Below, in pieces: positions 2,098 to 62,094 of a DNA stretch of 64,000 nucleotides. The stretch comes from Giardia intestinalis. Taxonomy: Eukaryota. The notes under the pieces are model-generated. The model searched no databases. It saw only the letters and a list, made by a program, of their open reading frames with translations, and was not told the DNA's origin. Position 1 is the stretch's first letter, and each line of letters begins with the position of its first letter. The stretch lies in NCBI GenBank assembly GCA_000002435.2, contig CM018792.1, one strand, 5' to 3'. The position numbers and the translations under genes were made by a program.

Positions 2098-4140
2098 TCA
2101 TTTACCTGAAGGCTCATCAGTAAGGCAAGTGCTTTTGATAAGATCTCCGGCAACACGCTTAATGAGACCCGTGAAGGAAGAGGAAATGAGCTCTTGAGCA
2201 GCAGCCCTTTTAGATGCTAAAGGCGAGTGATAATGCACAGAGACAATAGCCGCAGATGAACAAGGCTGAATGGAGAGTTCTGAGATCACGTAAGGCTTCG
2301 CCATTGTCTTCAAATCGTCTGTAAGGCTTTCACGACGCCGCTGTAGCTTCTCGACCAGATCGTTGAGCTGATCATCATATTTCGGTGTGATTCGAAAGTG
2401 AAGTGCATCCAGCTCCTGAGGCAGGGTGGTGGACTTTAGCAGCACACCGGCAACAGCGTTGTCGCCAGACCCAGCCAAGTAGCGGGACAACGGAGATGAC
2501 GTGAACAGACTTACGTCATAATTAGGGTCCTGCAAAAGCTCGCAGTCCAAGGTCTGAGTATCACAAAGGGGAACAAGAGAATAGTCAGTAAAGTGACTAA
2601 TGGGAAGCGAGCTGCTGGTGTGTGCTCTATATGTTGCGCCAGGGTCTCCGGCTTCTTCAACAGAGATATCTGGGGCAAGGAGAGACTTTGGCCAGCGGGT
2701 AATTGTGTCCCATACATCACTATTAAATGTTCCCGTGCTGTCGCCACCACTTGAGCTTATTATTCCAACAAAGCTGTGACAGTACGACGCCCAATGACAA
2801 TTCAGAGGTGCATAGACACATTTCCCTATTGTGTTATGGTAGCTAGCATGACGAATTGCTAGTTCCTTGGTAGATGTTGAGAAACCAATTGCATCAAGGA
2901 TCGTCTTGAATTTAGTGAAAACACTGGATGGAAGTCGTGTTATATCTACAACTACATTCTCTGAGGCAATGACGTTTGCATTCTGCATCAATGCAAGCTG
3001 AGACTTGGTAGAAAACCCTAACATTCCAACAATGGCTTCACCAGTTGAAGTCTGTCCCGTGATAGCGATGGATGTTGGAACACGAAGACTCTTAGAATAA
3101 AAGAATGGGACAAGCGCTTCGGTGACTCCGTCCACGGTTGCCTCCTTAGCTTCTTTGGACTCCTTCTCAAGCAAAGACTCAAACTTGTTATCACAATCTT
3201 TCTTAAGGTTGACAAGTTCGTCTTTGCAACCCATTAGTTCAGCAAGCGATGAAATAGTTGTTTCAATGTCTCCGGGAAGGAACATGTCCATTCCGTCCCG
3301 ACCTACAAGATCGAGGGCCTCCTGCATCAATTGTTCATTGGCAAACACGTCAGCTGCTGTCTTCTCAGGGTGGGCATTGGCATAGAAGCGGAGAGCCTGA
3401 TTAACGTATCCAGCTGGATCGCGATTAATAAGCACTCTAAGTGCCTCATTTGGAACCATTTCTGCCAGGAAATTGAATGGAGCAACGGTAAGGCTTGTTC
3501 CGAGGATAAGCAACATGCTTGTCTTTTCTGCATCTCCAATTATCTCGGGGGCAAGCTGAAACTCCGAAGGTAATTGCTCTCCAAAGAACACTATCCTGGG
3601 CTTTAAAACCCGACCGCAACGTGGGCAATGTGAGACAGATTGGTCCATGGCTGCAGCACGGAAAACGTTCTGGTCTTCCACTTGGTAGGTACACACACCA
3701 GAGACATTCCCTAGACAGTACAAGCCTTTACAATAGCTTCCATGACACTGCAAAATACGCCGGGGAGACACTCCTGCAAATATTTCAAGCTCGTCGATAT
3801 TCTGTGTGTAGATAAATCGCACAAGACCCCTATCTTCTAAGATCTTAAAGAAGTGGTGTGCCATGGTGGGCTTATACTTGTAAGACGGGAAGATAGATAC
3901 TGACAGCGAGGAGAACGGTCGGGGACGCAAGCAGTAGTACGAGAGATCAAACATGGAGGTGGGCGTTGGCAAGTTATAGCGTTCGAGTTGAGAGTAGAGA
4001 CCTGTTCCTTTGGAACGAAAATCCGGTATTCCCGCTGCGACAGAAATTCCTGCACCAGCAAGGATGACAATGGATTCTTTCTTGGCTCTGGAAATACTCT
4101 CTACGAGGCGCTTGAGAGTCTGCCCATAATTAGCAGGCAT
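2098..4140 (-). CDS. Sir2-family NAD-dependent protein deacetylase (sirtuin), copy B, with long C-terminal extension
   Basis: 680-aa ORF with verified ATG at 4138-4140. Motifs: GAGISVAAGIPDFRSKG, YTQNIDELE, CHGSY, CPRCG. Paralogous to the adjacent copy A and separated from it by only 39 bp. Confidence 0.8.
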   Translation of the reverse strand: MPANYGQTLKRLVESISRAKKESIVILAGAGISVAAGIPDFRSKGTGLYSQLERYNLPTPTSMFDLSYYCLRPRPFSSLSVSIFPSYKYKPTMAHHFFKILEDRGLVRFIYTQNIDELEIFAGVSPRRILQCHGSYCKGLYCLGNVSGVCTYQVEDQNVFRAAAMDQSVSHCPRCGRVLKPRIVFFGEQLPSEFQLAPEIIGDAEKTSMLLILGTSLTVAPFNFLAEMVPNEALRVLINRDPAGYVNQALRFYANAHPEKTAADVFANEQLMQEALDLVGRDGMDMFLPGDIETTISSLAELMGCKDELVNLKKDCDNKFESLLEKESKEAKEATVDGVTEALVPFFYSKSLRVPTSIAITGQTSTGEAIVGMLGFSTKSQLALMQNANVIASENVVVDITRLPSSVFTKFKTILDAIGFSTSTKELAIRHASYHNTIGKCVYAPLNCHWASYCHSFVGIISSSGGDSTGTFNSDVWDTITRWPKSLLAPDISVEEAGDPGATYRAHTSSSLPISHFTDYSLVPLCDTQTLDCELLQDPNYDVSLFTSSPLSRYLAGSGDNAVAGVLLKSTTLPQELDALHFRITPKYDDQLNDLVEKLQRRRESLTDDLKTMAKPYVISELSIQPCSSAAIVSVHYHSPLASKRAAAQELISSSFTGLIKRVAGDLIKSTCLTDEPSGK

Positions 4141-10171: not shown

Positions 10172-10370
10172 GGAGCGCCAGCGGGTCCGGCCGGCGAAGA
10201 TTGAGAAAAGGAGCGGGGTGCAAGCACGCGCCAACGGGCTCCCGCGAAACCAGAGGTCCCCCAGCGACTCTAGACTGAAGCTGGTGCTAACTGTCTCTGT
10301 TTTTGTTAACCACGCCGCGCTTTTATTTCCAACCGCCTATTTCAATTTAAAATGGTTTACTCTGGGGACG

Positions 10371-13267: not shown

Positions 13268-14398
13268 TTAGATATTTTGGGCTAGTTCGGTGCACAAAGG
13301 CCCTGTCCACCCTGAAACACATACGCATGCGCTGGCTATGCAGACCCCATGATTCCCACAGACCTCGTTTAGTTCTGCATCAGTTATGCATGCTGTACTA
13401 TAACACATACTGGCGGTATTTATTGGTAAATCCTCGGTACAGGTGCATGCATAAAGCTCAGGCCCGTCTGAGTCGCCTGACACCATGAAACACGACCCAT
13501 AGTTACTACATTCCAGAGGTGTGCTGCTATTCACTGGATAGGAAATGCAAGACTTTGGAATACAGCGGTCTCTGGACGACATGTAGATACTAGCCTCGCT
13601 ACACGCATCACAGTATATGCCTTTATACGGCGCATGGCATGCACAGAAATGAGCAGAGCGACCCGCATCATACGTACAAACTCCATTGCCACTGCATTCT
13701 GTCAGAAGGCTACTCCGCACTTCAATCACGCATTCGGAAGCAACACATCTATTTTCGACTAACTGAAAACCTTTGTCACAGACACATGAATAGGTTGCTA
13801 CGTCATCCACTATCTGTTTGGTACATCGACCGTTAAGACACGGGATTCCGTTGCGAATGCATGTTAGAGGGTAGCACAGCTCTGATTCTAGCAGAGCTGC
13901 TTGGGGGCTACAATGGCAGTGAGGAACAGGTTGCAGTAGGCATCGACCAAGGGAAGAATCAACTGAGCTACAAAGCTGTTCGTTGGATACGCAATTCCTT
14001 GGGTGGCAGCCGTCCTGAGCAAAGAGGGTTCCCTCGTCGCACACAGGCTTTATGTGCTCACAGCTAACACCATAGTAGCGTGGGTCGCATTCGCACAGTC
14101 CCGCTCTGCAGAATCCGTGCCCACTGCATATGTTGGATGGATCCCCTCCAGTAAGGCAGTCCTGAGAGTAGCACACAAAGTCGATGGCAGTGCATCCAGA
14201 GATGCATGAGCAGTCGTATGCACCGTAAGCTGTGAGCACGCATAGCCCAGCATCTCCACACTCTCCCAGCGTCCCATCGGGGTACTCTGTAACGCAGGAC
14301 TCGGGGATACAAGTGGAGTCTACTTTTCTCGTACCAGGTGGACACACTATTGTCGGCAAAGCATTACACAGCAGACCACCCCAAATAAGGATCTGCAT
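13268..14398 (-). CDS. Secreted cysteine-rich EGF-repeat protein (tenascin-like/high-cysteine protein family), not a VSP
   Basis: Track start at 14476 is GTG. The first ATG (14396-14398) gives signal-peptide-like MQILIWGGLLCNALPTIVC. Multiple EGF-like modules, e.g. CSGHGFCRAGLCECDPRYYGVSCE. No CRGKA tail and no C-terminal TM. Confidence 0.55.
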   Translation of the reverse strand: MQILIWGGLLCNALPTIVCPPGTRKVDSTCIPESCVTEYPDGTLGECGDAGLCVLTAYGAYDCSCISGCTAIDFVCYSQDCLTGGDPSNICSGHGFCRAGLCECDPRYYGVSCEHIKPVCDEGTLFAQDGCHPRNCVSNEQLCSSVDSSLGRCLLQPVPHCHCSPQAALLESELCYPLTCIRNGIPCLNGRCTKQIVDDVATYSCVCDKGFQLVENRCVASECVIEVRSSLLTECSGNGVCTYDAGRSAHFCACHAPYKGIYCDACSEASIYMSSRDRCIPKSCISYPVNSSTPLECSNYGSCFMVSGDSDGPELYACTCTEDLPINTASMCYSTACITDAELNEVCGNHGVCIASACVCVSGWTGPLCTELAQNI

Positions 14399-14427
14399 AG
14401 CCAAACTGAGCAAATTAAATAATTGAA
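14399..14427. promoter_or_regulatory. 29-bp AT-rich bidirectional promoter/initiator region between divergent genes
   Basis: Sequence ttatttaatttgctcagtttgg / aaattaaataattgaa lies between the two divergent ATGs at 14398 (-) and 14428 (+). Matches the short AT-rich Giardia initiator style. Confidence 0.5.
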
Positions 14428-15426
14428 ATGGAGCGGGCAGGGAGCCGAAGAGGGTCAGAAGATAAGCCCCGTGCACCTACGACAGCACGAGGAAAGCGTA
14501 TCATGAAAGAGAGGGAGCCCAAGATTGTTGAAAATAATAAGAATACAATCTTTCTTTCAGGCTCCACTGCCAACAAGGACTGCAACGATCTCTTGAGGGA
14601 TCTCCTCTCTATGCGCGCCCCAATGGGTGTGCGCAGAAGATTCAGAGATAGGGAGGCCAATCCCTTTGTAGACGCCAGTGAGCTCGAGTTTTTGTCGCAG
14701 CGGGTTGATTGCTCCCTGTTCTGCACGGGAACAAGCTCGAAGAAGCGGCCATCCAATATAGTTATTGGTCGGATGTTTGATGGACAGGTGCTGGACATGG
14801 TTGAGCTGGGTATTGACCTCTACCTAGGCTTGACTGACATACACTCACCAAAGCCCCAATTCGGGACGAAGCCGGCCCTGATCTTCGAGGGGGACCTGTG
14901 GAGCAATGACACGATATTCGAGGGGTGTAAGTCTATCCTCATGGACTTCTTCCGGGGCCCCACGATCACGGCCATGGCCCATGCATCTCTGCGCTACTGC
15001 CATGTCTTCTATGCGGTCGGGTCCGAAGACTTGCAGACGCGTCGCATCCTTATGCGCACCTATTACCTGTGCACGAGCCGCGAGCTAGAGGAGAAGGAGA
15101 ATGTCAAGAAGCTCCACCAGGAGAGCTGCGGGGGGATCACTATCATCCCCATGGGACCCAACGTCGACTTCACCCTCCGACGGACGCGGATCCTCGACCG
15201 CTCGGAGATGGCTGCGGCCATGCGCCGGCAGCGCGCCAAGAAGGACCCCTCGAAGGTCCCGGGCGTCAAGAACGCAGAGTACGACGAGCTCGGCCGCGAG
15301 TTCGGGACCGTCTACGTCGACCGCCAGGACCTCGACAAGCTCGGCCTGCGGCGCTTCAAGGGGCTCCGCCGCGACCGGTCCGAGAGCGGGGAGGAAGGCG
15401 ACGGAGAGGAGAGCGCCAGCGAGTAA
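14428..15426 (+). CDS. RPF2: Ribosome production factor 2 (Brix-domain protein RPF2)
   Basis: 332 aa with ATG at 14428. N-terminal KPRAPTTARGKRIMKEREPKIVENNKNTIFLSGS matches RPF2 VKPKTKRAKRFLEKREPKLNENIKNAMLIKG. Brix-type fold downstream. Acidic, GC-rich C-terminal region. Confidence 0.7.
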   Translation: MERAGSRRGSEDKPRAPTTARGKRIMKEREPKIVENNKNTIFLSGSTANKDCNDLLRDLLSMRAPMGVRRRFRDREANPFVDASELEFLSQRVDCSLFCTGTSSKKRPSNIVIGRMFDGQVLDMVELGIDLYLGLTDIHSPKPQFGTKPALIFEGDLWSNDTIFEGCKSILMDFFRGPTITAMAHASLRYCHVFYAVGSEDLQTRRILMRTYYLCTSRELEEKENVKKLHQESCGGITIIPMGPNVDFTLRRTRILDRSEMAAAMRRQRAKKDPSKVPGVKNAEYDELGREFGTVYVDRQDLDKLGLRRFKGLRRDRSESGEEGDGEESASE

Positions 15427-15482: not shown

Positions 15483-15564
15483 GGCGCTATGGCCGAGTGG
15501 TTAAGGCGGTTGACTCGAAATCAACTGTGCTCCGCACGCGTGGGTTCGAATCCCACTGGCGCCG
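15483..15564 (+). tRNA. tRNA-Ser (anticodon CGA)
   Basis: GGCGCTATGGCCGAGTGGTTAAGGCGGTTGACTCGAAATCAACTGTGCTCCGCACGCGTGGGTTCGAATCCCACTGGCGCCG. Type-II tRNA with long variable arm (GTGC/GCAC stem), anticodon stem GTTGA/TCAAC, anticodon loop CTCGAAA, GTTCGAATC T-loop, discriminator G73. Confidence 0.85.
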
Positions 15565-15619
15565 CTTGGCCCCGTAACAGCGCCCTCCACGCGCGTCCTG
15601 GCCGGAGCGGGCGGACGAC

Positions 15620-15693
15620 GCTCGTGTGGCGCAGCTGGTTAGCGCGTGTGACTTATGATCACGAGGTCGAGGGTTCGAGCCCCTCCTCGAGCA
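15620..15693 (+). tRNA. tRNA-Ile (anticodon UAU), apparently intron-less
   Basis: GCTCGTGTGGCGCAGCTGGTTAGCGCGTGTGACTTATGATCACGAGGTCGAGGGTTCGAGCCCCTCCTCGAGCA. Perfect D- and T-arms, anticodon stem TGTGA/TCACG, anticodon loop CTTATGA (U33, anticodon TAT). One U-U mismatch in the acceptor stem. 5' half resembles eukaryotic tRNA-Ile-UAU. Confidence 0.7.
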
Positions 15694-19377: not shown

Positions 19378-21147
19378 CTACGCCTTCCCCCTGCAGAGGA
19401 ACCACCAGCAGAGGAAGCCCACGAGGCCCCCCACGACGACGACCACAGCGACGGAGATCCCCGCGATGGCGCCTGTGCTGAGGCCGCTCCTGTTGGCGCC
19501 AGAGGACACACACTTACCACCCTCCAGACTGTACCCATCACTGCACTCCCCACACACATCATCCATCACACAGCTCTTGCAATCACCCACAGAGCATGTC
19601 ACACACCCACTGCCGTCCTTGTTGGGCTTCCTATCACTGTCACAGGAGGTACACACAGCGGGGGTCATGCCAGCATCAGATGGAGCTGTTGGGGCTGTAC
19701 ACTGTGAACAGCCATCCACCCCCACGTATGCCTTCTGACCAGCCAGCTCGACACCAAGGGGGTTCCCACAGGAGAGGACAGACTGCTTGTCCTTGGTGGG
19801 CGAGGGAGGGATGAAGTACCCAGCTGCCGCCTCTGTGCAGACACCATCACCTGCCTTTGTGCACATGGACTTACCCGGCTGAGCTGATATACTATAACAA
19901 CCACCCATGTATAGGAAGTATCCCATAGTACATGATGTGCAGACATTATTGACACATCCTGTATTGCCTTTAGCCTCACTAGCACAGAGACCATCAATAG
20001 GGAACTCACTGTCCTTTCCACAGTAAGAACAGTAGTGAAGCTCCTTCCCTGTGTTGTCGATTACTATTGCATCACAGGCTCCAGATGTCCCACCACAGGC
20101 CGTGGGGTCTTCACACACCTTTGTACACGTGACCCCAGTTGAAGGTTCTCCACTGGGTCTGTAGTTCACCTTGCATTTTGTGCACTTAAATGTGCCACTA
20201 TTTGTGCACTCGGCACACCCCTCGATGCCACCTTTGGTTGTGTCACTACATGAGATGCACTCACCAGAGGAGCTATCCTTCAAGAAGTACCCTTGCTTAC
20301 ATGTCAGGCACTTACTCGGATCTTCCTTCTTGGAGCATGTCGCACAGCCTGGAGCGCACGGATCGCACGCAAAACCCCCACCGTTAGTATTCTCGATGTA
20401 TCCCTCCAGGCATTTTGAACAGGTTGGCGGATTTCCTGCCGTCTTCTCACATATGCTGCACCCGGCAATGCCCTTATCATTTACGCCAGCATCAGGGGAC
20501 GCATCGCCGCAAAGAGCACACGTTTTGTCCTCCTTCATAAATAAGGCCCCGTCAGCGCCCTTGCACCCGTCAAGCGTTTTATCGACGCAGGTCGATGTCC
20601 CGTCGAGGGCCGTCCTGGGGGTCTTATTGGTCCCGCAGTTAGTGCACTTCGGCTTCCCCGTGGTCTTGTCGAAGGAGCATGCCGTGCAATCTGCGTGTAT
20701 CTCACTGCATGCTTTGCAGGTCATTGTTAGCTCGTCTGCATACTGATTGTTCTCACACGTATTAGAGCATGAGTTATCTGACTTCAGATAGGTCCCCGGC
20801 TTGCATGTCTCACAGTTGGTCGCACCGGCCCCGGTACATGTGGCACAGTTCTGATTGCATGGCTTGCAAAGCTTATCGCTCAGGAAGTATCCATCTTGGC
20901 AGGTACTACATGTAGCTGCTCCTGCACTCTGTGGTGCCTGACACTGTGCGCAGTTATCCACTCCCATGACCCCGTCTCTCTGTGTAGTATCAGAGCAGAG
21001 GATGCACTCGTTGCCAGGGGCTACTGGGCTGGCCGGGTTCTGGAATAGATACGCGGCGCCTGCCTTGCAGGTGGTGCACACTCCCTTGTCGGCCGCCGTG
21101 CATATCTCGTTGCCAGGATCTTGTCCTACCTTGTAGCACCCGCCCAT
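19378..21147 (-). pseudogene. Variant-specific surface protein (VSP) fragment, 5'-truncated: no signal peptide and no in-frame ATG at the equivalent N-terminus
   Basis: CXXC-rich ORF ending GGLVGFLCWWFLCRGKA*. The ORF-track start at 21189 is GTG, and the first in-frame ATG (21145-21147) gives MGGCYKVGQDPG..., with no signal peptide. The ORF begins only about 40 bp after the CRGKA stop of the upstream VSP. Body is homologous to the VSP at 60022-62094 from about residue 60 onward. Confidence 0.6.
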
Positions 21148-21216
21148 GAAGAGGAGTCCCACACCATCACTATCACCCCCACACCACACATAGCACTATC
21201 ACTATCACTGTACAGC

Positions 21217-21231
21217 ATTCACTACCTAAGT
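21217..21231 (-). promoter_or_regulatory. VSP extended polyadenylation signal (ACTTAGGTAGTGAAT)
   Basis: Immediately follows TGA of the repeat-containing VSP. Matches consensus ACTYAGRTAGTRAAY. Confidence 0.6.
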
Positions 21232-24200
21232 CACGCCTTCCCTCTACAGATGAACCACCAGCAGAGGAACCCTACGAGGCCCCCCACGACGACGACCACA
21301 GCCACGGAGATCCCCGCGATGGCACCTGTGCTGAGGCCGCTCTTGTTGACGCTTCCGCCGGTGTTGTCGCCGTCTGTTTTGATATAGCAGGTGACAGGAC
21401 CGCCATTGCCACCAGCTGGCGGGGCGCAGCTTACGCAATTAGCGACACCAGTGATTTGGTTGTTATTTCCACTACTAGCTGTACATTTGAAGCATTTATC
21501 ACCGGCACCTTTGTAGTATCCAGGAAGGCATTCAGTGCAGGCATTAGAATCATTGCATTTTGCACAGCCTTCAGAGCACTCCGGACACTTCTCTTGCACA
21601 GGTGCCTGGTTATTTGCAGCACACATAGTGCACTTTCCGTTACTAGCGAGCGTGCAAACCGATTTGCCAGGAAGCTTAGCCACACCATAGCACCCGCCCG
21701 ACATGAGAGTATACTCTCCTGCACATTTGGTGCACTTGCCATCTGCCGCCGTGCATACGCTCGCGTCTCTCCCGGCAGCTGCCACCGTTGTACAAATTCC
21801 GTCGATCGGGGCGTACCCGTCCTTGCACTGAGCACAGTACTTCGCGCCCCCCACGTTAGCCGTGCACTGCCCGTCTGCACAGTTGGTAATGAACGCACCA
21901 GTGCACTCCTTGACGCATGTTCCGGCTGTGCCAGATCCATACAGGAGAGAATACCCGGGATAGCAGGCCGTGCAGGAAGCAGCGTTTGCATCGCCGTTGC
22001 ATTCTGCACACGTAGCATGGCAGGAAGCACAGACACTGACTCCGTTAATATTATCGGCATATGTTCCAGCAGGACAGTTGTCCAAGCATGCATTGCCCGA
22101 AGGAGTAAGCCGCTTGTCTGTACACTCGGAGCACACAACCGTCGATTCTGCTTCTCCAGAGAGCGTTTTGAGGGCACACTTTTTGCAGCCTGTGATGCCG
22201 TGGGTTGCGTCGCTGCATGAGAGGCACATCCCCTTCGAGTCACCGGCCTTCTCTCTAGTGAAGTGCGTCTTATCGGAGGTGCACTCTTCGGCAGTAAGGC
22301 ACGCTCCCGATTGCCCAGCTGCAGACTCTGGCTTTAGATACCGTCCCTCTTTACAGCCAGTGCACTTGTCGGCCTGGTTCGTCATGGCGTTCTCGGTGCA
22401 TCCGTCGCAGCTGGAGTGGCACCCCGGCGTGGCGGCGGGGCATTTCCCGTTCTCTGGTGGTGCGCCGGTACTGCATCTAGCGCAGACATCATTCTGATCG
22501 CATCGTTCACAGTTAGCATCTGAGCAAGAGAAGCACTGCGTACCTGCAGTATTAGGCTTTTGGCCTTCTGCACACTTCTTGCACTCCTTTGCGTCGGAAA
22601 CGCTGTCGTCGGTGTAGTAGCCCGCGCTCCCCTGGCAGTCGACCGCGCTGACGCACGTCCCCGTCGGGTCGCTGGGATTCGTCTTCTTCAGGTAGGGCGC
22701 GGCGCCGTTTGCGTCGCATTTGGTGCACTTATCGGCCGTTCCAGCACACGCCGTGCAAGGGGCGTTGCACTTCTTGCACTCCTTTGCGTCGGAAACGCTG
22801 TCGTCGGTGTAGTAGCCCGCGCTCCCCTGGCAGTCGACCGCGCTGACGCACGTCCCCGTCGGGTCGCTGGGATTCGTCTTCTTCAGGTAGGGCGCGGCGC
22901 CGTTTGCGTCGCATTTGGTGCACTTATCGGCCGTTCCAGCACACGCCGTGCAAGGGGCGTTGCACTTCTTGCACTCCTTTGCGTCGGAAACGCTGTCGTC
23001 GGTGTAGTAGCCCGCGCTCCCCTGGCAGTCGACCGCGCTGACGCACGTCCCCGTCGGGTCGCTGGGATTCGTCTTCTTCAGGTAGGGCGCGGCGCCGTTT
23101 GCGTCGCATTTGGTGCACTTATCGGCCGTTCCAGCACACGCCGTGCAAGGGGCGTTGCACTTCTTGCACTCCTTTGCGTCGGAAACGCTGTCGTCGGTGT
23201 AGTAGCCCGCGCTCCCCTGGCAGTCGACCGCGCTGACGCACGTCCCCGTCGGGTCGCTGGGATTCGTCTTCTTCAGGTAGGGCGCGGCGCCGTTTGCGTC
23301 GCATTTGGTGCACTTATCGGCCGTTCCAGCACACGCCGTGCAAGGGGCGTTGCACTTCTTGCACTCCTTTGCGTCGGAAACGCTGTCGTCGGTGTAGTAG
23401 CCCGCGCTCCCCTGGCAGTCGACCGCGCTGACGCACGTCCCCGTCGGGTCGCTGGGATTCGTCTTCTTCAGGTAGGGCGCGGCGCCGTTTGCGTCGCATT
23501 TGGTGCACTTATCGGCCGTTCCAGCACACGCCGTGCAAGGGGCGTTGCACTTCTTGCACTCCTTTGCGTCGGAAACGCTGTCGTCGGTGTAGTAGCCCGC
23601 GCTCCCCTGGCAGTCGACCGCGCTGACGCACGTCCCCGTCGGGTCGCTGGGATTCGTCTTCTTCAGGTAGGGCGCGGCGCCGTTTGCGTCGCATTTGGTG
23701 CACTTATCGGCCGTTCCAGCACACGCCGTGCAAGGGGCGTTGCACTTCTTGCACTCCTTTGCGTCGGAAACGCTGTCGTCGGTGTAGTAGCCCGCGCTCC
23801 CCTGGCAGTCGACCGCGCTGACGCACGTCCCCGTCGGGTCGCTGGGATTCGTCTTCTTCAGGTAGGGCGCGGCGCCGTTTGCGTCGCATTTGGTGCACTT
23901 ATCGGCCGTTCCAGCACACGCCGTGCAAGGGGCGTTGCACTTCTTGCACTCCTTTGCGTCGGAAACGCTGTCGTCGGTGTAGTAGCCCGCGCTCCCCTGG
24001 CAGTCGACCGCGCTGACGCACGTCCCCGTCGGGTCGCTGGGATTCGTCTTCTTCAGGTAGGGCGCGGCGCCGTTTGCGTCGCATTTGGTGCACTTATCGG
24101 CCGTTCCAGCACACGCCGTGCAAGGGGCGTTGCACTTCTTGCACTCCTTTGCGTCGGAAACGCTGTCGTCGGTGTAGTAGCCCGCGCTCCCCTGGCAGTC

Positions 24201-24815
24201 GACCGCGCTGACGCACGTCCCCGTCGGGTCGCTGGGATTCGTCTTCTTCAGGTAGGGCGCGGCGCCGTTTGCGTCGCATTTGGTGCACTTATCGGCCGTT
24301 CCAGCACACGCCGTGCAAGGGGCGTTGCACTTCTTGCACTCCTTTGCGTCGGAAACGCTGTCGTCGGTGTAGTAGCCCGCGCTCCCCTGGCAGTCGACCG
24401 CGCTGACGCACGTCCCCGTCGGGTCGCTGGGATTCGTCTTCTTCAGGTAGGGCGCGGCGCCGTTTGCGTCGCATTTGGTGCACTTATCGGCCGTTCCAGC
24501 ACACGCCGTGCAAGGGGCGTTGCACTTCTTGCACTCCTTTGCGTCGGAAACGCTGTCGTCGGTGTAGTAGCCCGCGCTCCCCTGGCAGTCGACCGCGCTG
24601 ACGCACGTCCCCGTCGGGTCGCTGGGATTCGTCTTCTTCAGGTAGGGCGTGTTGCCGTTTGCGTCGCATTTGGTGCATTTTTTCCCAGTTGAATCGCATT
24701 CAGCGCAACCATCGATCGATGGACTGCATGCATCAGCCAGTGCGACTGCAAAAATCAAACCAATTCCTACCAACATTGAGGCCAGAAGCTGGCACAGCAC
24801 CGCTCTGGTTTGCAT
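21231..24815 (-). CDS. Variant-specific surface protein (VSP) with about eleven tandem 65-aa repeats; reminiscent of the vspA6/CRP170-type repeat VSPs
   Basis: Ends ...VGGLVGFLCWWFICRGKA*. The track start at 24938 is TTG. Candidate true starts are ATG 24813-24815 (MQTRAVLCQLLASMLVGIGLIFAVALADA) or 24774-24776 (MLVGIGLIFAVALADA, a typical 16-aa VSP signal peptide). Dense CXXC and GGCY motifs throughout. The central region consists of near-identical 65-aa units: KKTNPSDPTGTCVSAVDCQGSAGYYTDDSVSDAKECKKCNAPCTACAGTADKCTKCDANGAAPYL. Confidence 0.85.
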   Translation of the reverse strand: MQTRAVLCQLLASMLVGIGLIFAVALADACSPSIDGCAECDSTGKKCTKCDANGNTPYLKKTNPSDPTGTCVSAVDCQGSAGYYTDDSVSDAKECKKCNAPCTACAGTADKCTKCDANGAAPYLKKTNPSDPTGTCVSAVDCQGSAGYYTDDSVSDAKECKKCNAPCTACAGTADKCTKCDANGAAPYLKKTNPSDPTGTCVSAVDCQGSAGYYTDDSVSDAKECKKCNAPCTACAGTADKCTKCDANGAAPYLKKTNPSDPTGTCVSAVDCQGSAGYYTDDSVSDAKECKKCNAPCTACAGTADKCTKCDANGAAPYLKKTNPSDPTGTCVSAVDCQGSAGYYTDDSVSDAKECKKCNAPCTACAGTADKCTKCDANGAAPYLKKTNPSDPTGTCVSAVDCQGSAGYYTDDSVSDAKECKKCNAPCTACAGTADKCTKCDANGAAPYLKKTNPSDPTGTCVSAVDCQGSAGYYTDDSVSDAKECKKCNAPCTACAGTADKCTKCDANGAAPYLKKTNPSDPTGTCVSAVDCQGSAGYYTDDSVSDAKECKKCNAPCTACAGTADKCTKCDANGAAPYLKKTNPSDPTGTCVSAVDCQGSAGYYTDDSVSDAKECKKCNAPCTACAGTADKCTKCDANGAAPYLKKTNPSDPTGTCVSAVDCQGSAGYYTDDSVSDAKECKKCNAPCTACAGTADKCTKCDANGAAPYLKKTNPSDPTGTCVSAVDCQGSAGYYTDDSVSDAKECKKCAEGQKPNTAGTQCFSCSDANCERCDQNDVCARCSTGAPPENGKCPAATPGCHSSCDGCTENAMTNQADKCTGCKEGRYLKPESAAGQSGACLTAEECTSDKTHFTREKAGDSKGMCLSCSDATHGITGCKKCALKTLSGEAESTVVCSECTDKRLTPSGNACLDNCPAGTYADNINGVSVCASCHATCAECNGDANAASCTACYPGYSLLYGSGTAGTCVKECTGAFITNCADGQCTANVGGAKYCAQCKDGYAPIDGICTTVAAAGRDASVCTAADGKCTKCAGEYTLMSGGCYGVAKLPGKSVCTLASNGKCTMCAANNQAPVQEKCPECSEGCAKCNDSNACTECLPGYYKGAGDKCFKCTASSGNNNQITGVANCVSCAPPAGGNGGPVTCYIKTDGDNTGGSVNKSGLSTGAIAGISVAVVVVVGGLVGFLCWWFICRGKA
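22573..24690. repeat. Tandem array of about 10.9 copies of a 195-bp unit, essentially identical copies, in-frame (65 aa) within the VSP
   Basis: Sequence periodicity of 195 bp is visible directly (e.g. gcacttatcggccgttccagcacacgccgtgcaaggggcgttgcacttcttgcactcc recurring every 195 nt). The ten identical 64-aa antisense ORFs in the ORF track at 22729, 22924, ... 24484 confirm identity of copies. The last copy diverges slightly at 24640-24690. Confidence 0.9.
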
Positions 24816-27800
24816 TAAGAGGCGCACGGGATCCTGCTTCATGTCACGGAATTCAATGGAACACAGCGGCCAACGGAAGCGAGGGCACATCCTCAAGCTA
24901 CACCGGAGACCCGTTAATGCAGCATCCGCCCTCAACAAGCACGACTGAGGAAGCCCAGCGCTGGCTTTCCTTGCTCTGAGAAGGCATAAGTGTATACATA
25001 GATAATGAGTGCATCCATTGCTACATTAACCCAGCTGGCGCTTGTAGCCCTTGACATCCGTAGCCACCGTGTCCTGTAATCTGTCTGATTGCCTGAGTGA
25101 CCATCGTGGGGGACACAGCGATCGTGATGCTCATGGAGTGGCATGGGGCCGGCTCTAGGATCACGCCGCCATCCGGGCAGACGCGCACCACAGAAAGCCT
25201 CTTGTTGCCACCGTCCGAGGCTCACAGGATTGCAGGGCTCAGGGAGCCTCTGTCCCATCAGCGAGACTGGCCTCGCCCGACGCCTCCAGCACTCTGCCAA
25301 TAGCTGGCGGACAAGCGTGCACAATAGCTTTGGACGGAGGGTACAAGGGACAGCAAAACAAGACAGTCAAGTAGGCGTTGACGGTACAAACACTGCCAGC
25401 CCTCAGTCAGAGAGCAGGCATCTGGGAAAGGTGAGGGTTGCTTGTTACTCTACACCTTAACGGCCAGGCTCAACAGTAGTCACTGTTTGAGAGCTCCATT
25501 TGAAAGCACTGTAGATGAGACTCTCTGCCTTCCTGGATGTTGATCCCAAGAATGTGCTGCCTGATTGTTTGTCTCTGCATCGGAGTCGTTGCTAACGGCC
25601 GTCCTGGTGCAGCAAGGGGCCCATACAAGAACCATGTGCCGGGCACTACTCAAGAACAGAACAGATATCGTTGCTACTCATAGGCTTAGACCGATTTTCC
25701 GAAGCGACAGATGTCAAGGGCAAGGACGGGGCCTGTTTCCGAGTCCCTAATTCGAGAGTTTGTGTGAGGACCACAGCACTCTGTTAGACCTTCCTGGAAG
25801 AGGACATCCACACATATCCTTGACTCCAATCCACGTCAAAGAACGCCCAGCGGCTGCCATAGCAGTTGGGCAATGCCATCACTCCTTGCTCAGAGCTACC
25901 CATCGTTGGTGATAAGCAGCTAGCGACAGGGAAAAGCTTCTTTAGACTTCTGATTGCGCCTCAACGTTTTCAAGTCCCCCCTATCGTTTTGCTGAGCCCA
26001 TGTTTCGCTGGTCTGGTGTGCTTGTATCCGTTCCAAAGCATGCTTGAAGTGGCGGCCAAGTGCTAGGCTTCATGTAGTTACCTCAGGCCACAGTGCTCGT
26101 GCGCAATAAGCAGAGTCTCCGGTCCACTGGCCACTGCTCTTGCTGCTCGTAAGCCTGCTCAGTGAGTGGCTATGGCAGGATCCTCCGCAAATGCGTATCT
26201 TTTGATACTTATTTCCATGTGCACAGAGGCAGGTGCACTGTAACTAGTCAAGGCGCCTGCTGCTCAGCCTCCTCGCCGTGGGGGTCTACTGCATACCCCT
26301 TCAGCAGATATTGATTAATGTGCCAGATACAACTACATCCTCAGACTGTCAACTGTGCATGTAGAAGTTTCAGGCCATCCTCTAGCACTGTTCCAATGCC
26401 GCAGAATCTGGATGGGACATCCCGACTACAAGCGCAGCGCAAGGCTAGCGCATTATGTCCGGCACTCTCTTACATTGCAGTTGGCTCCGGCGGCTATTGC
26501 CCTGGACTTACGTTTGGAGATAGGATGATCTGTACCCATCAGTGTGGATGAGCCATTGTCAACCATCGCAGAGACGCTCAGAGTCAACGTAGGCCACACA
26601 TTGATAAGCCGTAATGGATTGCTGGGCAGTCGTAGTACCCGGCAGCGCGCCTTATGGAGCTGTGGCAAGTGAATACGCTGACTTCCGATTCGCCTATCCA
26701 TTAGGGTCCAGACACTTCAAATGGATATGCAGTATATGCTAGCCACGGTTCAGACTGCCAGCTGCATGGATCCTGTGACTGGCCATTAGACATCTTTACT
26801 GTGGTTGTAACACAGTGAAGTGGTACTATATACGCTTGCTGGCGATCATCCGCTATGCACAAATGTACCCGTCGGAGGCCAGTGTATCGGTCACTTTCTG
26901 CTGCGAAGGGAATGCTTAGCCGCTAGCACAGCCGATTCTCTACACCCTACTGATGGCTGTTTTGCGTATATCAGGCTTGGTATCCGCAAGCGAAGTATCC
27001 AGTTAGCAACAGACCAGGGTTATGTTCATCGGAGCAGATGATCAAGCACCAGAGCTGGATTGTCAAGTCCCAGAAGGTGCCACCTCTTCTGGAACGCCCC
27101 TACAAAAACAAGAACCCGACAGCGGAGTTGTGAGGAACTCGAAGTAAGGTCGATCAGGGCACTCTCCTGGGTTCGATGCCATGTTGATTCTAAGGTCTCA
27201 GATGATACAGGAACGCAAAGAATGGCCTCCGCAGCACGCCAAGATTGTGTCATGGAAAGAGCTTCGAAGACTACTGCTCGCTTCATGGACTCTCTTACGA
27301 GTATCCTATGCATCTCTAATAAGGATGAGACGTCCAGCTTAGCATGGATTCCACTACGGTGTCTAAGACAGAATCTGCAAGGGGGTCACTCATCACTATC
27401 TTTCTAATGTATCACTCACTGAAGACCGAGTTCCTATCATAAAGGGCCGAGGAAGAATGACAATAGAATCCATGCAATAGCGCCTGCATAGTTCATTCAG
27501 GGATGAAATTCCAACCTTGGGCCATTTGCCTTTTGACGCTCTCTGTGGATCCCTGAGGAACCTGTGAAGAGGGATGCATTACATAGAAATGATGCTAAGT
27601 AAGCTCGTGGTAACAATTCAATGAAGGCGCCCAAGACAACAAAAAGCGCACCCTCGTCAGCCAGGCAGATCGAGATCACTCCGCAGCCGAAACAACGACT
27701 GTGTGGGGATTCACGTGGGGATTGGAGGCGTGTGCTCGCTAGTACAACATCACGCTCTAACTGGTTGATGCTTCTGAAGCGGGGAAGGAGCACTCTTGGA

Positions 27801-27920
27801 AGACCGTAGTGTCAGAGGTGCAGTACTACAGGCCATAGGTGAGAGTCCCAGCAACACAGCATTTAAAGTATCGATAAGCGATGGAAATATCAGCTTTTAA
27901 AAAGGGAGTATAGATTCAAT

Positions 27921-28298
27921 ATGGGGGACAATAGGCTATCTGTGGAGAATACGTACCAGTTAGGACCAGAAGAGCCCCTCACGCGCTTGGCTATCAGGCC
28001 TCTGGTTCAGAAGGCTCTACAGAAGCAGTTTTTGAATTGGACATATGACGCTAAAACTGGGGCATCCAAGAGCCGCGACACTTGCGCAATGATACAGAAT
28101 TACATAAATGATAGTGCAGTTGTTCCGCCTCGCTACAAGGTTATGGTTCAAGTATTTATTGTACCTCTCAAAGGGCAATGCGTCCGGCTTGCTACGCGTT
28201 CCGTCTGGGAACCGTCCACAGACAATTTGGTCAGCGAAACGTTCACTGGCCGTGATTACGCTGCAACTGCCCTTGTTTTTTACACATATAATGAGTGA
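27921..28298 (+). CDS. Tctex-1 family dynein light chain
   Basis: 125 aa; ATG at 27921 preceded by ttttaaaaagggagtatagattcaat. C-terminal half KYKVMVQVFIVPLKGQCVRLATRSVWEPSTDNLVSETFTGRDYAATALVFY aligns to Tctex-1 [50 protein letters not shown]. Confidence 0.75.
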   Translation: MGDNRLSVENTYQLGPEEPLTRLAIRPLVQKALQKQFLNWTYDAKTGASKSRDTCAMIQNYINDSAVVPPRYKVMVQVFIVPLKGQCVRLATRSVWEPSTDNLVSETFTGRDYAATALVFYTYNE

Positions 28299-60021: not shown

Positions 60022-62094
60022 ATGCTACACCACAGCCTTTCTACTGATACCCCTGTTCGTGGCGAGCACCATCGCAGTGACCTGCCAGCAAGACGGGAAC
60101 CATACAGCGACCTGCGCACAGAATAAGTGCGAGACGGTCGGGGCCACCGAGATCTGCACCCAGTGCAGGGCCGGGGCGTCCCGGTCGACGGCTTCTGCCG
60201 GCCCCCCGGCTCCCCCCAGGCCGCGGCAGCCGGGTGCACCAAGGAAGACGGGACTGCCCTCGACAAGACGGCAGCCACCTGCGGGAAGTGCGGCGACGGG
60301 TACTTCCTCTTCATGGGCGGGTGCTACAACAAGGATGCACACCCTGGCAGTGACATATGCACACAGGCTGAGGGAGGACTGTGCACTGAGTGTAATACAA
60401 AGAACGGCCTGTTCAAGAACCCGGCTGCAGCACCGAAGCCTGGTAATGAGTGCATTCTGTGCTGGGACACGGTGGGAGATGGCGCGACAAAGGGAGTAGA
60501 GAACTGCGCCACATGTACAGCACCGGGGAATGCAGGAGTAGCTACATGTGATACCTGTCAAGATGGATACTACAAGGACTCTCTGGTATGTATGCAGTGT
60601 GATCAGTCTTGTCTGACCTGCGATGGAAGTGGTCCGAATCAGTGCACCTCTTGTAAGGAGGGGAAGTACCTGAAAGGGACTGAGTGTGTAGACAAAGGTA
60701 CGTGTAAGACTGACTACTACCCCGATGACACTAGCATGACCTGCGTTGCCTGTAGCACCATACAAGATTGCACAGCATGCACAATGGACCAGTCCACGGG
60801 GAAGCCAAAGTGCACTAACTGCGGTAGTCAGAAGATCCCCAGGACGACCCTCGACGGGACCTCGACCTGTGTGGAAAATTCTTATGCTGGGTGTCAAGGC
60901 ACAGACAAGGAGCTGTTCATGAAGGAGGACCAACCGGAGTGCCTGCTGTGTGGAGATGCTACAACGGGAACAGATCCGAAAGATAAAGGCGTCGCTAATT
61001 GTAGGACATGCACTAAAGCCAGCGCTACTGGAGCCGCACCGGTCTGTGAGACATGCAAGGAAGGATACATTAAGAATGGAAATGGTGCGGGCGCCACGTG
61101 TGAGGCTTGTCATCAGAACTGTGCCACATGTTCTGAAGCTACGACAGAAAATAAGTGCCTGACCTGCAAAGAGGGGTTCTTCCTGGCCGGCACCGGCGAA
61201 GGAAAGTGCATCTCGTGCGAGAATGGTAATGATAGTGGCTACAGCGGGCTTGCAGGATGCCTCTCTTGCACAGCCCCAGCCGCCCCGGGCCCGGCCAGCT
61301 GCAACCGCTGCAAGATCGGCTACACGCTACAGGGAACAACGTGTGTGAAGACCTGCGAGGATGAGACTGCCTGTGGGGGGACCTCTGGGGCCTGTGATGC
61401 CATAGTGATCGGTGCCAATGGAAAGGAGCTTCACTACTGTTCCTATTGTGGAGAGGCTAATAAGTATCCTATCAACGGTGTCTGTGTTAGTACTGGTAAT
61501 GAAAATGGGAATACTTGTGCTAAAGGTGTATGTACACAGTGCACTACGGGATACTTTATGTACATGGGAGGCTGTTATAAGGTGACAGAGGTGCCGGGTA
61601 AGTCCATGTGCACAAAGGCAGGCGATGGTGTCTGCACAGAGGCGGCAGCCGGGTACTTCATCCCTCCCTCGCCCACCAAGGACAAGCAGTCCGTGTTGGC
61701 ATGTAGTAACCCCCTTGGTGTCGAGCTGGCTGGTCAGAAGGCATACGTGGGGGTGGATGGCTGTTCACAGTGTACAGCCCCAACAGCTCCATCTGATGCT
61801 GGCATGACCCCCGCTGTGTGTACCTCCTGTGACAGTGATAGGAAGCCCAACAAGGATGGCAGTGGGTGTGTGCTGTGCTCTGTGGGTGGTTGCAAGAGCT
61901 GTGTGATGGATGATGTGTGTGGGGAGTGCAGTGATGGGTACAGTCTGGAGGGTGGTAAGTGTGTGTCCTCTGGCGCCAACAGGAGCGGGCTGTCTACTGG
62001 CGCCATCGCGGGGATCTCCGTCGCTGTGGTCGCTGTCGTGGGGGGCCTCGTGGGCTTCCTCTGCTGGTGGTTCCTGTGTAGGGGGAAGGCGTGA
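60022..62094 (+). pseudogene. Variant-specific surface protein (VSP) with two compensating frameshifts in the 5' region (pseudogene or sequence error)
   Basis: The ATG at 60022 and the VSP body (60127-62094, ending ...GGLVGFLCWWFLCRGKA*) are in frame 0. The signal peptide and first CXXC module (..CYTTAFLLIPLFVASTIAVTCQQDGNHTATCAQNKCETVGATEICTQCRAG) are encoded in frame +1 from about 60025 to about 60200. Frame 0 hits TAA at about 60118, and the frame returns to 0 in the C/G homopolymer run gccggccccccggctcccccc (about 60195-60215). The C-terminal 165 aa are nearly identical to the VSP fragment at 19378-21147. Confidence 0.6.

Follow-up and report, generated by a model that had tools for sequence, protein, structure and literature searches.

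The gene carrying the repeat array in the window, which is the whole stretch of 64,000 nucleotides of Giardia intestinalis DNA analyzed here, is identified by its sequence as vspA6 (CRP170, vsp67, GL50803_221693), which encodes a type I membrane surface antigen involved in antigenic variation. The full reading, in which the array is the vspA6 repeat domain, its units are modular and its copy number would be changed by recombination, is given a probability of about 0.9. vspA6, its 195-bp repeats and its varying repeat number are already known, and the current understanding of antigenic variation is left unchanged by this analysis. Among the variant antigens of Giardia, VSPA6 was the earliest to be characterized, and a cytotoxic antibody has its immunodominant target in the VSPA6 repeats.

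Identity of the Gene

Over its full length, the window protein is 100% identical to the protein KAE8304195.1 / XP_001707734.2, which belongs to the PacBio reference of G. intestinalis WB. Version 1 of XP_001707734 is GL50803_221693, to which CRP170/VSPA6 was matched at 100% identity in a proteomics study (PMC7332775), and the 65-aa repeat printed in that study is the unit of the window array. The published vspA6 consists of an initial 99 bp, followed by 195-bp repeats and then about 1.3 kb (PMC2996952); the layout in the window, with 99 bp, 195-bp repeats and 1,342 bp, is the same. The link to vspA6/CRP170, which the first-pass annotation had proposed, is therefore confirmed by the accession, the 65-aa unit and the layout.

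The locus in the window and the known vspA6 / CRP170 / vsp67 (Adam et al. 1988, PMC2188815; Adam et al. 2010, PMC2996952; Mueller et al. 2020, PMC7332775) are the same locus, having in common the 596 non-repeat residues, the 65-aa unit, the leader, the period, the 3' part and the 6E7 epitope, so that the agreement holds both inside and outside the repeats. The sole difference is the copy number: the window has 10.8 units, version 1 has 26.8, and the expressed gene that was cloned has ~22-23+. The window gene, with a CDS of 3,546 nt and a predicted mass of 119 kDa, does not reach the 5.4-kb mRNA and the 170-kDa protein of the expressed gene. As copy number is a documented variable character of this locus, the mismatch indicates a shorter version of vspA6 rather than exclusion from it.

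Table 1. Features of the vspA6 locus, with positions counted from the first nucleotide of the window.
Feature	Position	Strand	Remarks
vspA6 (GL50803_221693) CDS	21231..24776	-	1,181 aa + TGA stop, 3,546 nt; 100% identity and coverage to KAE8304195.1 / XP_001707734.2; PF03302
Candidate initiator element CAatgTT at start codon	24772..24778	-	context TCTGGCCTCAATGTTGGT fits the PyAatgTT consensus of PMC2996952
5' unique segment, 99 bp	24678..24776	-	putative signal peptide MLVGIGLIFAVALA, then first CXXC; ATG-to-array distance 99 bp
Repeat unit 1, variant edge copy	24483..24677	-	3 substitutions, AA to NT: GAAPYLKK to GNTPYLKK
Repeat units 2-10	22728..24482	-	9 x 195 bp at 100% identity; translation of each copy CTKCDANGAAPYLKKTNPSDPTGTCVSAVDCQGSAGYYTDDSVSDAKECKKCNAPCTACAGTADK
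Repeat unit 11, partial	22573..22727	-	155 bp, matches consensus; array stops within CKKC, then unique AEGQKPNTAG...
3' unique ectodomain and conserved C-terminal anchor	21234..22572	-	~1.3 kb, 446 codons; 1,342 bp with stop
Conserved VSP C-terminus (last 38 aa)	21234..21347	-	transmembrane helix and CRGKA tail; ends ...GLSTGAIAGISVAVVVVVGGLVGFLCWWFICRGKA
Candidate polyadenylation signal AGTGAAT	21217..21223	-	7 nt past stop
Downstream VSP-like ORF	19378..21189	-	41 bp past vspA6 stop; PF03302 E 1.4e-40
Antisense ORF, repeat by-product	22560..24692	+	710 aa; exactly one antisense unit frame without stops

The assignment of the gene to the VSP family, already made in the first-pass annotation, is supported by a match of the protein to the Pfam profile PF03302 (E 3.8e-63, 214 bits, cut-off 31.4), by the hydrophobic anchor with the CRGKA end, and by the Cys-rich CXXC ectodomain, the whole protein of 1,181 aa containing 144 Cys (12.2%) and 52 CXXC. 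The start was placed at the ATG of MLVGIG..., rather than at the upstream TTG given by the ORF finder; a hydrophobic stretch is visible at this N-terminus by inspection of the translation, and the reference annotation picked the vspA6 start with SignalP. The sequence CAATGTT at the start codon corresponds to PyAatgTT, which has been found in expressed VSPs and in VSPs that are first in an array (PMC2996952). Surface expression of VSPA6 and mutually exclusive switching have been reported in the literature. The 3' end of vspA6 shares 93% DNA identity with the 3' end of the neighboring VSP (family D5). The polyadenylation signal consensus of Giardia is AGTPuAAPy, which the AGTGAAT downstream of the vspA6 stop is presumed to fit.

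The VSP-like ORF downstream of vspA6 has neither a PyAatgTT element nor a signal peptide and is probably a pseudo-VSP, which would make vspA6 the first gene of a two-gene linear array; such linear arrays and psi-VSPs have been described (PMC2996952, PMC7000408). A Pfam CLIP-domain match (E 4.3e-12) was rejected as a summed artefact of the repeated Cys pattern, as no single stretch passes. The window also contains a Giardia U6 snRNA, which supports the assignment to this organism.

Structure of the Repeat Array

As determined by Tandem Repeats Finder, the positions from 22573 to 24677 form a single array of 2,105 bp with a period of 195, 10.8 copies, 99% matches, 0% indels and a score of 4189. 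The base-by-base comparison gave zero differences across ten full 195-bp periods (22573-24522) and three differences in the whole array, at 24650, 24652 and 24653, all within coding unit 1. In the register of the coding (minus) strand, the units fall into the three classes of unit 1, units 2-10 and unit 11, as listed in Table 1. Since 195 = 65 x 3, the array is in frame within the 1,181-aa ORF. These results bear out the earlier description of in-frame identical 195-bp (65-aa) tandem repeats inside a VSP. Its count of about eleven identical copies is made more precise as 10 perfect periods among 10.8 copies, and its end at 24690 lies 13 nt past the true end of the array.

Each 65-aa unit contains 8 Cys and 3 CXXC, in agreement with the CXXC modules that had been ascribed to each unit. 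The third-position GC is 0.85 in the repeat unit compared to 0.58 in the remainder of the gene. A 29-mer of the unit has 10 exact occurrences in the window and one further occurrence with 3 mismatches, compared to 0 matches in 100 shuffles of the window.

When two units were searched against 1.84 billion representative proteins, only 25 matches passed E <= 1e-3, with A6-S2 at the top; this small number shows only that the repeat unit has few detectable relatives. The 29-mer had 0 matches among metagenome contigs. The exact-protein look-up of encoding contigs returned 0 for the window vspA6 protein and 0 for the protein P0002, and vsp67 / 221693 had no match in the paper supplements searched.

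Epitope and Predicted Fold of the Repeat Unit

GAAPYLKK is given as the epitope of the cytotoxic mAb 6E7 in the section of PMC7332775 that cites Mowatt et al. 1994. The window protein has 10 copies of this sequence, one in each unit except unit 1, where the three substitutions give GNTPYLKK instead and the epitope is lost.

For the first 228 aa, the AlphaFold2 model has a pLDDT of 86.4, and its secondary-structure pattern recurs exactly every 65 residues. The predicted model superposes on solved furin-like repeats, and all units are predicted to fold alike, as a furin-like cysteine-rich module of the R-spondin type. At the level of profiles and sequences, the vspA6 protein had 0 matches to Pfam Furin-like / GF_recep_IV, the precomputed matches to PF15913/PF14843 were limited to the paralogue P0003, and the PDB sequence search gave 0 matches for the vspA6 repeat protein. 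The model and the sequence together suggest that units could be gained or lost without disturbing the fold. As units would be added or removed in this way, copy number would set both the length of the ectodomain and the valency of the epitope.

Copy Number and Probable Homogenization of the Array

The number of units is 26.8 in the 2007 assembly (P0066), 10.8 in the window and 5.8 in the VSP AS6 record (P0065). In the protein comparison, the exact internal units amounted to 25, 9 and 4, respectively, and the 596 residues remaining after their removal were identical in the three proteins. Version 1 of the RefSeq protein, with 2,259 aa and a start 38 codons upstream, differs from version 2, with 1,181 aa, by 16 units, and the predicted mass is ~224 kDa for 26.8 units compared to 119 kDa for 10.8 units, with 6.6 kDa for each unit. 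Two sister loci also changed between the RefSeq versions, one by +6 units of 64 aa and the other by +2 units of 67 aa, with identical flanks.

The expressed vspA6 gene has been described with ~22-23+ copies, a 5.4-kb transcript and a 170-kDa antigen. Compared to these values, the 10.8 copies and 119 kDa of the window therefore point either to an allele with fewer units or to an array that was shortened in assembly; in the tetraploid, 10.8 copies may be the length of a real allele or just the length at which the assembler arrived. vspA6 alleles of ~8, 9 and 23 copies have reportedly been described. The variation of vspA6 alleles in copy number is stated in the passages on this gene in PMC2996952 and PMC7332775. 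The earlier proposal of this locus as a candidate for length polymorphism is thus in line both with the literature and with the three records, which differ by whole units only.

Because the internal units are perfect, the edge unit has diverged and the records differ by whole units, we infer that unequal recombination or replication slippage acts on the array. When in register, either process would alter the copy number and at the same time homogenize the units, as in concerted evolution. This mechanism is read from the pattern of the repeats. The perfect identity of the units alone fits both ongoing homogenization and a single recent expansion. Recent expansion, concerted evolution and assembly collapse, the alternatives listed in the first-pass annotation, are the right set and are not fully separable from sequence.

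A single recent expansion, in which the array is young, concerted evolution is not ongoing and the copy differences between the records are all technical, would explain the zero substitutions over 10 periods. Little divergence would be expected in any case, as the allelic heterozygosity of WB is very low, at 0.01%, according to the figure quoted in PMC7048089. However, the three paralogous loci, with units of 195, 201 and 192 bp, are uniform internally and different from one another, which is the pattern expected from repeated homogenization within each array after the divergence of the genes. In addition, only the edge unit has diverged, as expected if interior units exchange more often, and allelic variation at vspA6 is reported in the relevant passage of PMC2996952. 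The single expansion is thus considered quite improbable.

Another explanation is that all chromosome copies of WB-C6 carry ~23-27 units and that the PacBio assembly or polishing cut a real gene to 10.8. The 26.8 units that the 2007 assembly of WB-C6 has at the vspA6 locus, together with the literature values for the expressed gene, favor such a collapse, and perfectly identical units offer an assembler no anchor. However, arrays of 2-5 kb are normally spanned by single PacBio reads. Furthermore, the two sister loci gained units in the new assembly instead of losing them, so that the collapse is not systematic, and in the VSP AS6 record no more than 5.8 units lie between identical flanks. The condensation of such repeat arrays by assembly is a warning given in PMC2996952, but allelic copy-number variation at vspA6 is also reported there, in the passage on this gene, independently of genome assembly. 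A collapse therefore seems unlikely, although distinctly less so than a single expansion. The possibility that the plus-strand ORF is the gene, or that the array is mainly a non-coding DNA element, is negligible. The ORF is indeed open, but the chance of a stop-free antisense frame in a 195-bp unit of 65% GC is estimated as ~0.2 per frame, and all the hallmarks of a VSP are present in the sense frame, which also agrees with peptides detected by mass spectrometry (PMC7332775). One antisense frame of the unit happens to lack stops, and the ORF consequently stays open over the whole array; it was rejected as a gene, and the identical antisense ORFs pointed out earlier do exist as one ORF, but as a trivial by-product of the repeat.

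It is a tentative and rather doubtful proposal that the 16 units by which the 2007 and 2020 reference sequences of WB-C6 differ are a real difference and that the array expands and contracts mitotically, either within laboratory time-scales or among the four copies of the chromosome, perhaps with GC-biased homogenizing recombination. Such recombination may act here and would then account for the higher third-position GC of the unit. If true, mitotic array change would add a second layer of variation in antigen size and epitope valency, independent of VSP switching.

As the reference versions differ by whole units, the repeat numbers in vspA6 and its sister genes should be treated as unverified. 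The uses of the reference that are affected include proteomic quantification, primer and probe design, epitope counting and structural-variant calling.

Comparison with Known Systems

The likeness of the predicted units to R-spondin Fu1-Fu2 and to the cysteine-rich domains of ErbB and the insulin receptor comes through the model only, a detectable sequence relationship to any PDB chain being absent, and the biology of the furin-like repeat proteins is unrelated, as a Wnt agonist differs from a parasite coat protein.

Among the related VSP loci, vspA6-S1 (vspG3M, vsp175; AAA82585.1 / XP_001704454) shares the leader and the unit sequence with vspA6, has a closely similar 3' part and belongs to the same 90% identity cluster. 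However, it has only ~0.8-1.8 units and 0-1 copies of the 6E7 epitope, shows scattered substitutions outside the repeat, and lies at a locus of its own on the 2.76-Mb contig that also carries vspA6. vspA6-S2 (AAA82586.1 / XP_001709457) and XP_001710273 share the leader, homogeneous tandem units and a related 3' part, with 64-78% identity, and the assembly versions again disagree in the number of their units. The units, of 67 aa (201 bp) in the former and 64 aa in the latter, differ in sequence and lack GAAPYLKK, and the two loci are found on large contigs (4.02 Mb and 1.97 Mb) other than that of vspA6. vspC5 (vsp90), the Giardia VSP with 105-bp repeats, resembles vspA6 in that its repeats are identical, in frame and more than 20 in number and that alleles of differing copy number are reported (PMC2996952), whereas its unit is unrelated and shorter and its repeats reach the conserved 3' end, by which published description it is set apart from vspA6.

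Repeat Array

Tandem Repeats Finder detected a sole array in the region of 20-28 kb, at 22573-24677, with a period of 195, 10.8 copies, 99% matches, 0 indels and a score of 4189. Compared base by base with itself shifted by 195, the sequence showed unbroken identity over 22573-24649, with zero differences across ten full 195-bp periods. A 29-mer derived from the unit had 10 exact occurrences and one more that differed at three bases, and it was matched in 0 of 100 shuffles. The array lies in frame within the minus-strand ORF (195 = 65 x 3), and each unit carries 8 cysteines, three CXXC motifs included, and one epitope of the cytotoxic antibody 6E7. The ten perfect periods and the 29-mer count relative to the shuffles confirm the in-frame 195-bp tandem repeats proposed in the first-pass annotation, although its end coordinate was 13 nt too far and its count of about eleven copies is more exactly 10.8.

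Features of the window (positions on the given strand)
Feature	Position	Strand	Remarks
tRNA-Phe(GAA)	253-326	minus	
Two adjacent Sir2-family ORFs, tandem	379-2058, 2098-4140	minus	PF02146, E 3e-51 and 9e-46
Giardia U6 snRNA	10209-10310	minus	Rfam RF02494, 135 bits; confirms Giardia as the organism
EGF/teneurin-like cysteine-rich ORF	13268-14476	minus	
Brix-domain ORF	14428-15426	plus	
tRNA-Ser(CGA)	15483-15565	plus	
tRNA-Ile(TAT)	15620-15693	plus	
VSP-like ORF	19378-21189	minus	41 bp past vspA6 stop; PF03302, E 1.4e-40; CRGKA tail
vspA6	21231-24776	minus	
Repeat unit 11, partial	22573-22727	minus	155 bp
Repeat units 2-10	22728-24482	minus	Mutually identical
Repeat unit 1 (coding direction)	24483-24677	minus	All 3 substitutions of the 2,105-bp array: 24650, 24652, 24653
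Tctex-1 dynein light-chain gene	27921-28298	plus	
Third VSP-family ORF	60127-62094	plus	PF03302, E 1.3e-48; locally GC-rich, long overlapping antisense ORFs

The substitutions in unit 1 (24650-24653) change GAAPYLKK to GNTPYLKK, and the edge unit therefore lacks the published 6E7 epitope. The NT variant also opens the repeat region in the sister VSP loci A6-S1 and A6-S2. Antisense ORFs were noted at first pass, and a plus-strand ORF of 710 aa is indeed present; however, it carries no information and was rejected as a gene, because one, and only one, of the unit's antisense frames is free of stop codons and is open of necessity across all copies.

Gene Structure and Identity

The vspA6 product, with 1,181 aa, 144 cysteines and 52 CXXC motifs, matches Pfam PF03302 (Giardia VSP, E 3.8e-63) and ends in a hydrophobic anchor followed by CRGKA, which bears out its initial assignment as a VSP. 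AGTGAAT, located 7 nt past the stop, is consistent with the Giardia polyadenylation signal. The mechanical ORF listing begins the gene at TTG; in biological terms the ATG at 24776 (MLVGIGLIFAVALA...) makes the sensible start, and its context, CAatgTT, is the initiator element proposed for VSP genes that are expressed (PMC2996952). The gene as measured has 99 bp ahead of the array and 1,342 bp after it, in agreement with the layout published for vspA6 (PMC2996952).

The 2007 annotation placed the protein start 38 codons 5' of the current one. The stretch 5' of the ATG (24777-24890, minus) is open in frame, with the translation …MKQDPVRLLMQTRAVLCQLLAS. This translation is nearly the same in vspA6, A6-S1, A6-S2 and P0004, a 66%-identical VSP, and the mature N-termini diverge, which suggests a conserved promoter-proximal region of the subfamily. 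GC3 is 55/65 (0.85) in the unit versus 259/446 (0.58) in the 3' unique part (21234-22572; Fisher p 1.9e-5), and the 99-bp leader has 0.33. The high value in the unit may stem from codon selection or from GC-biased conversion as the array recombines.

Along its full length the protein shows 100% identity to KAE8304195.1 / XP_001707734.2 of G. intestinalis WB. The gene for this record lies on a contig of 2.76 Mb in AACB03, the chromosome-scale reference built from PacBio reads (PMC7000408). Version 1 of XP_001707734 is the 2,259-aa "hypothetical protein GL50803_221693", which has 100% identity with the CRP170 sequence (PMC7332775). The repeat printed for CRP170 in the same paper is the exact unit of the window, circularly permuted, and the target of 6E7 is GAAPYLKK inside this unit (PMC7332775). 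The window gene is vspA6 itself in the current reference genome, and no mere relative; the link to vspA6/CRP170, proposed at first pass, holds for the RefSeq protein, the unit and the layout.

Genomic Neighbourhood

Housekeeping genes (Sir2 x2, SPT16, phosphatase, gamma-tubulin complex protein, Brix, Tctex-1, PCIF1 and Utp11) flank vspA6 on both sides, and the locus is therefore chromosome-internal, as also reported in the literature (PMC2996952). The ~3.1 kb upstream (24777-27920) contains no ORF with a family match, which fits the gene-poor VSP surroundings reported before. The VSP-like ORF downstream is without a PyAatgTT element and without a signal peptide; it is likely a pseudo-VSP that makes up, head to tail with vspA6, a linear array of two members, an arrangement that is known (PMC2996952, PMC7000408). 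The start of the Brix-domain ORF overlaps the opposite-strand EGF/teneurin-like ORF by ~49 nt.

Copy Number and Evolution of the Array

The exact units were stripped from three deposited versions of the vspA6 protein, and the remainders were compared. The remainder was the same 596 residues in all three, with zero differences, and the predicted mass per unit is 6.6 kDa.

Repeat content of three deposited vspA6 proteins
Version	Exact internal units	Total copies	Predicted mass (kDa)	6E7 epitopes
P0001 (window)	9	10.8	119	10
P0066 (2007 Sanger assembly)	25	26.8	224	26
P0065 (VSP AS6, AAN52109.1)	4	5.8	86	5

The copy-number polymorphism anticipated at first pass is thus seen as whole-unit differences among three records, and it is already documented in the literature. 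From RefSeq version 1 (2007 assembly) to version 2 (2020 assembly), vspA6 (P0001/P0066) lost 16 units, while XP_001710273 (P0071/P0003) gained 6 units of 64 aa and XP_001709457, which is vspA6-S2 (P0002/P0069), gained 2 units of 67 aa, in whole units only; both sister loci shifted oppositely to vspA6. Because the versions differ in three repeat-bearing VSPs, repeat numbers in either Giardia reference are untrustworthy without read support.

The figure of 10.8 copies may reflect a genuine allele of the tetraploid, or it may have arisen in assembly. Assembly collapse of a longer array is a less likely source of this number, since arrays of 2-5 kb normally fall within the span of PacBio reads, the sister loci were lengthened rather than shortened in the new assembly, and an even shorter record is known. 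In-register unequal crossing-over or gene conversion, or replication slippage, would both alter the copy number and homogenise the array. Judged from the sequence, the array appears to show the classic pattern of such recombination or slippage, because the interior units are perfectly identical, only the edge unit has diverged, and the units of paralogous loci are uniform within and different between loci. A single very recent expansion is the weaker alternative.

Predicted Fold and Comparison with Known Systems

An AlphaFold2 model of residues 1-228 (leader and three units), built on a 26-sequence alignment, had a mean pLDDT of 86.4, and its strands and one short helix repeat exactly every 65 residues. 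The closest solved fold (Foldseek) is that of the paired furin-like repeats of R-spondin, with a TM of 0.60-0.67, and the cysteine-rich domains of ErbB and IGF1R are far behind. The sequence search against PDB chains gave no match, and the likeness to R-spondin is one of fold in the predicted model. The ectodomain may be a string of like modules, so that the gain or loss of whole units would alter its length and epitope valency with the fold undisturbed. This fits the published account that repeat number underlies the size heterogeneity of 6E7-reactive VSPs (Mowatt et al. 1994, as cited in PMC2996952 and PMC7332775).

Of 1.84 billion representative proteins, no more than 25 matched the unit at E <= 1e-3, and its detectable relatives are thus few. 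The family of A6, A6-S1 and A6-S2, evolving "through gene duplication and divergence", is already in the literature (PMC2996952, PMC7332775). Among the defining characters of vspA6, the window gene departs only from the ~22-23+ copies of the expressed gene, and this copy number is a known variable character of the vspA6 locus.
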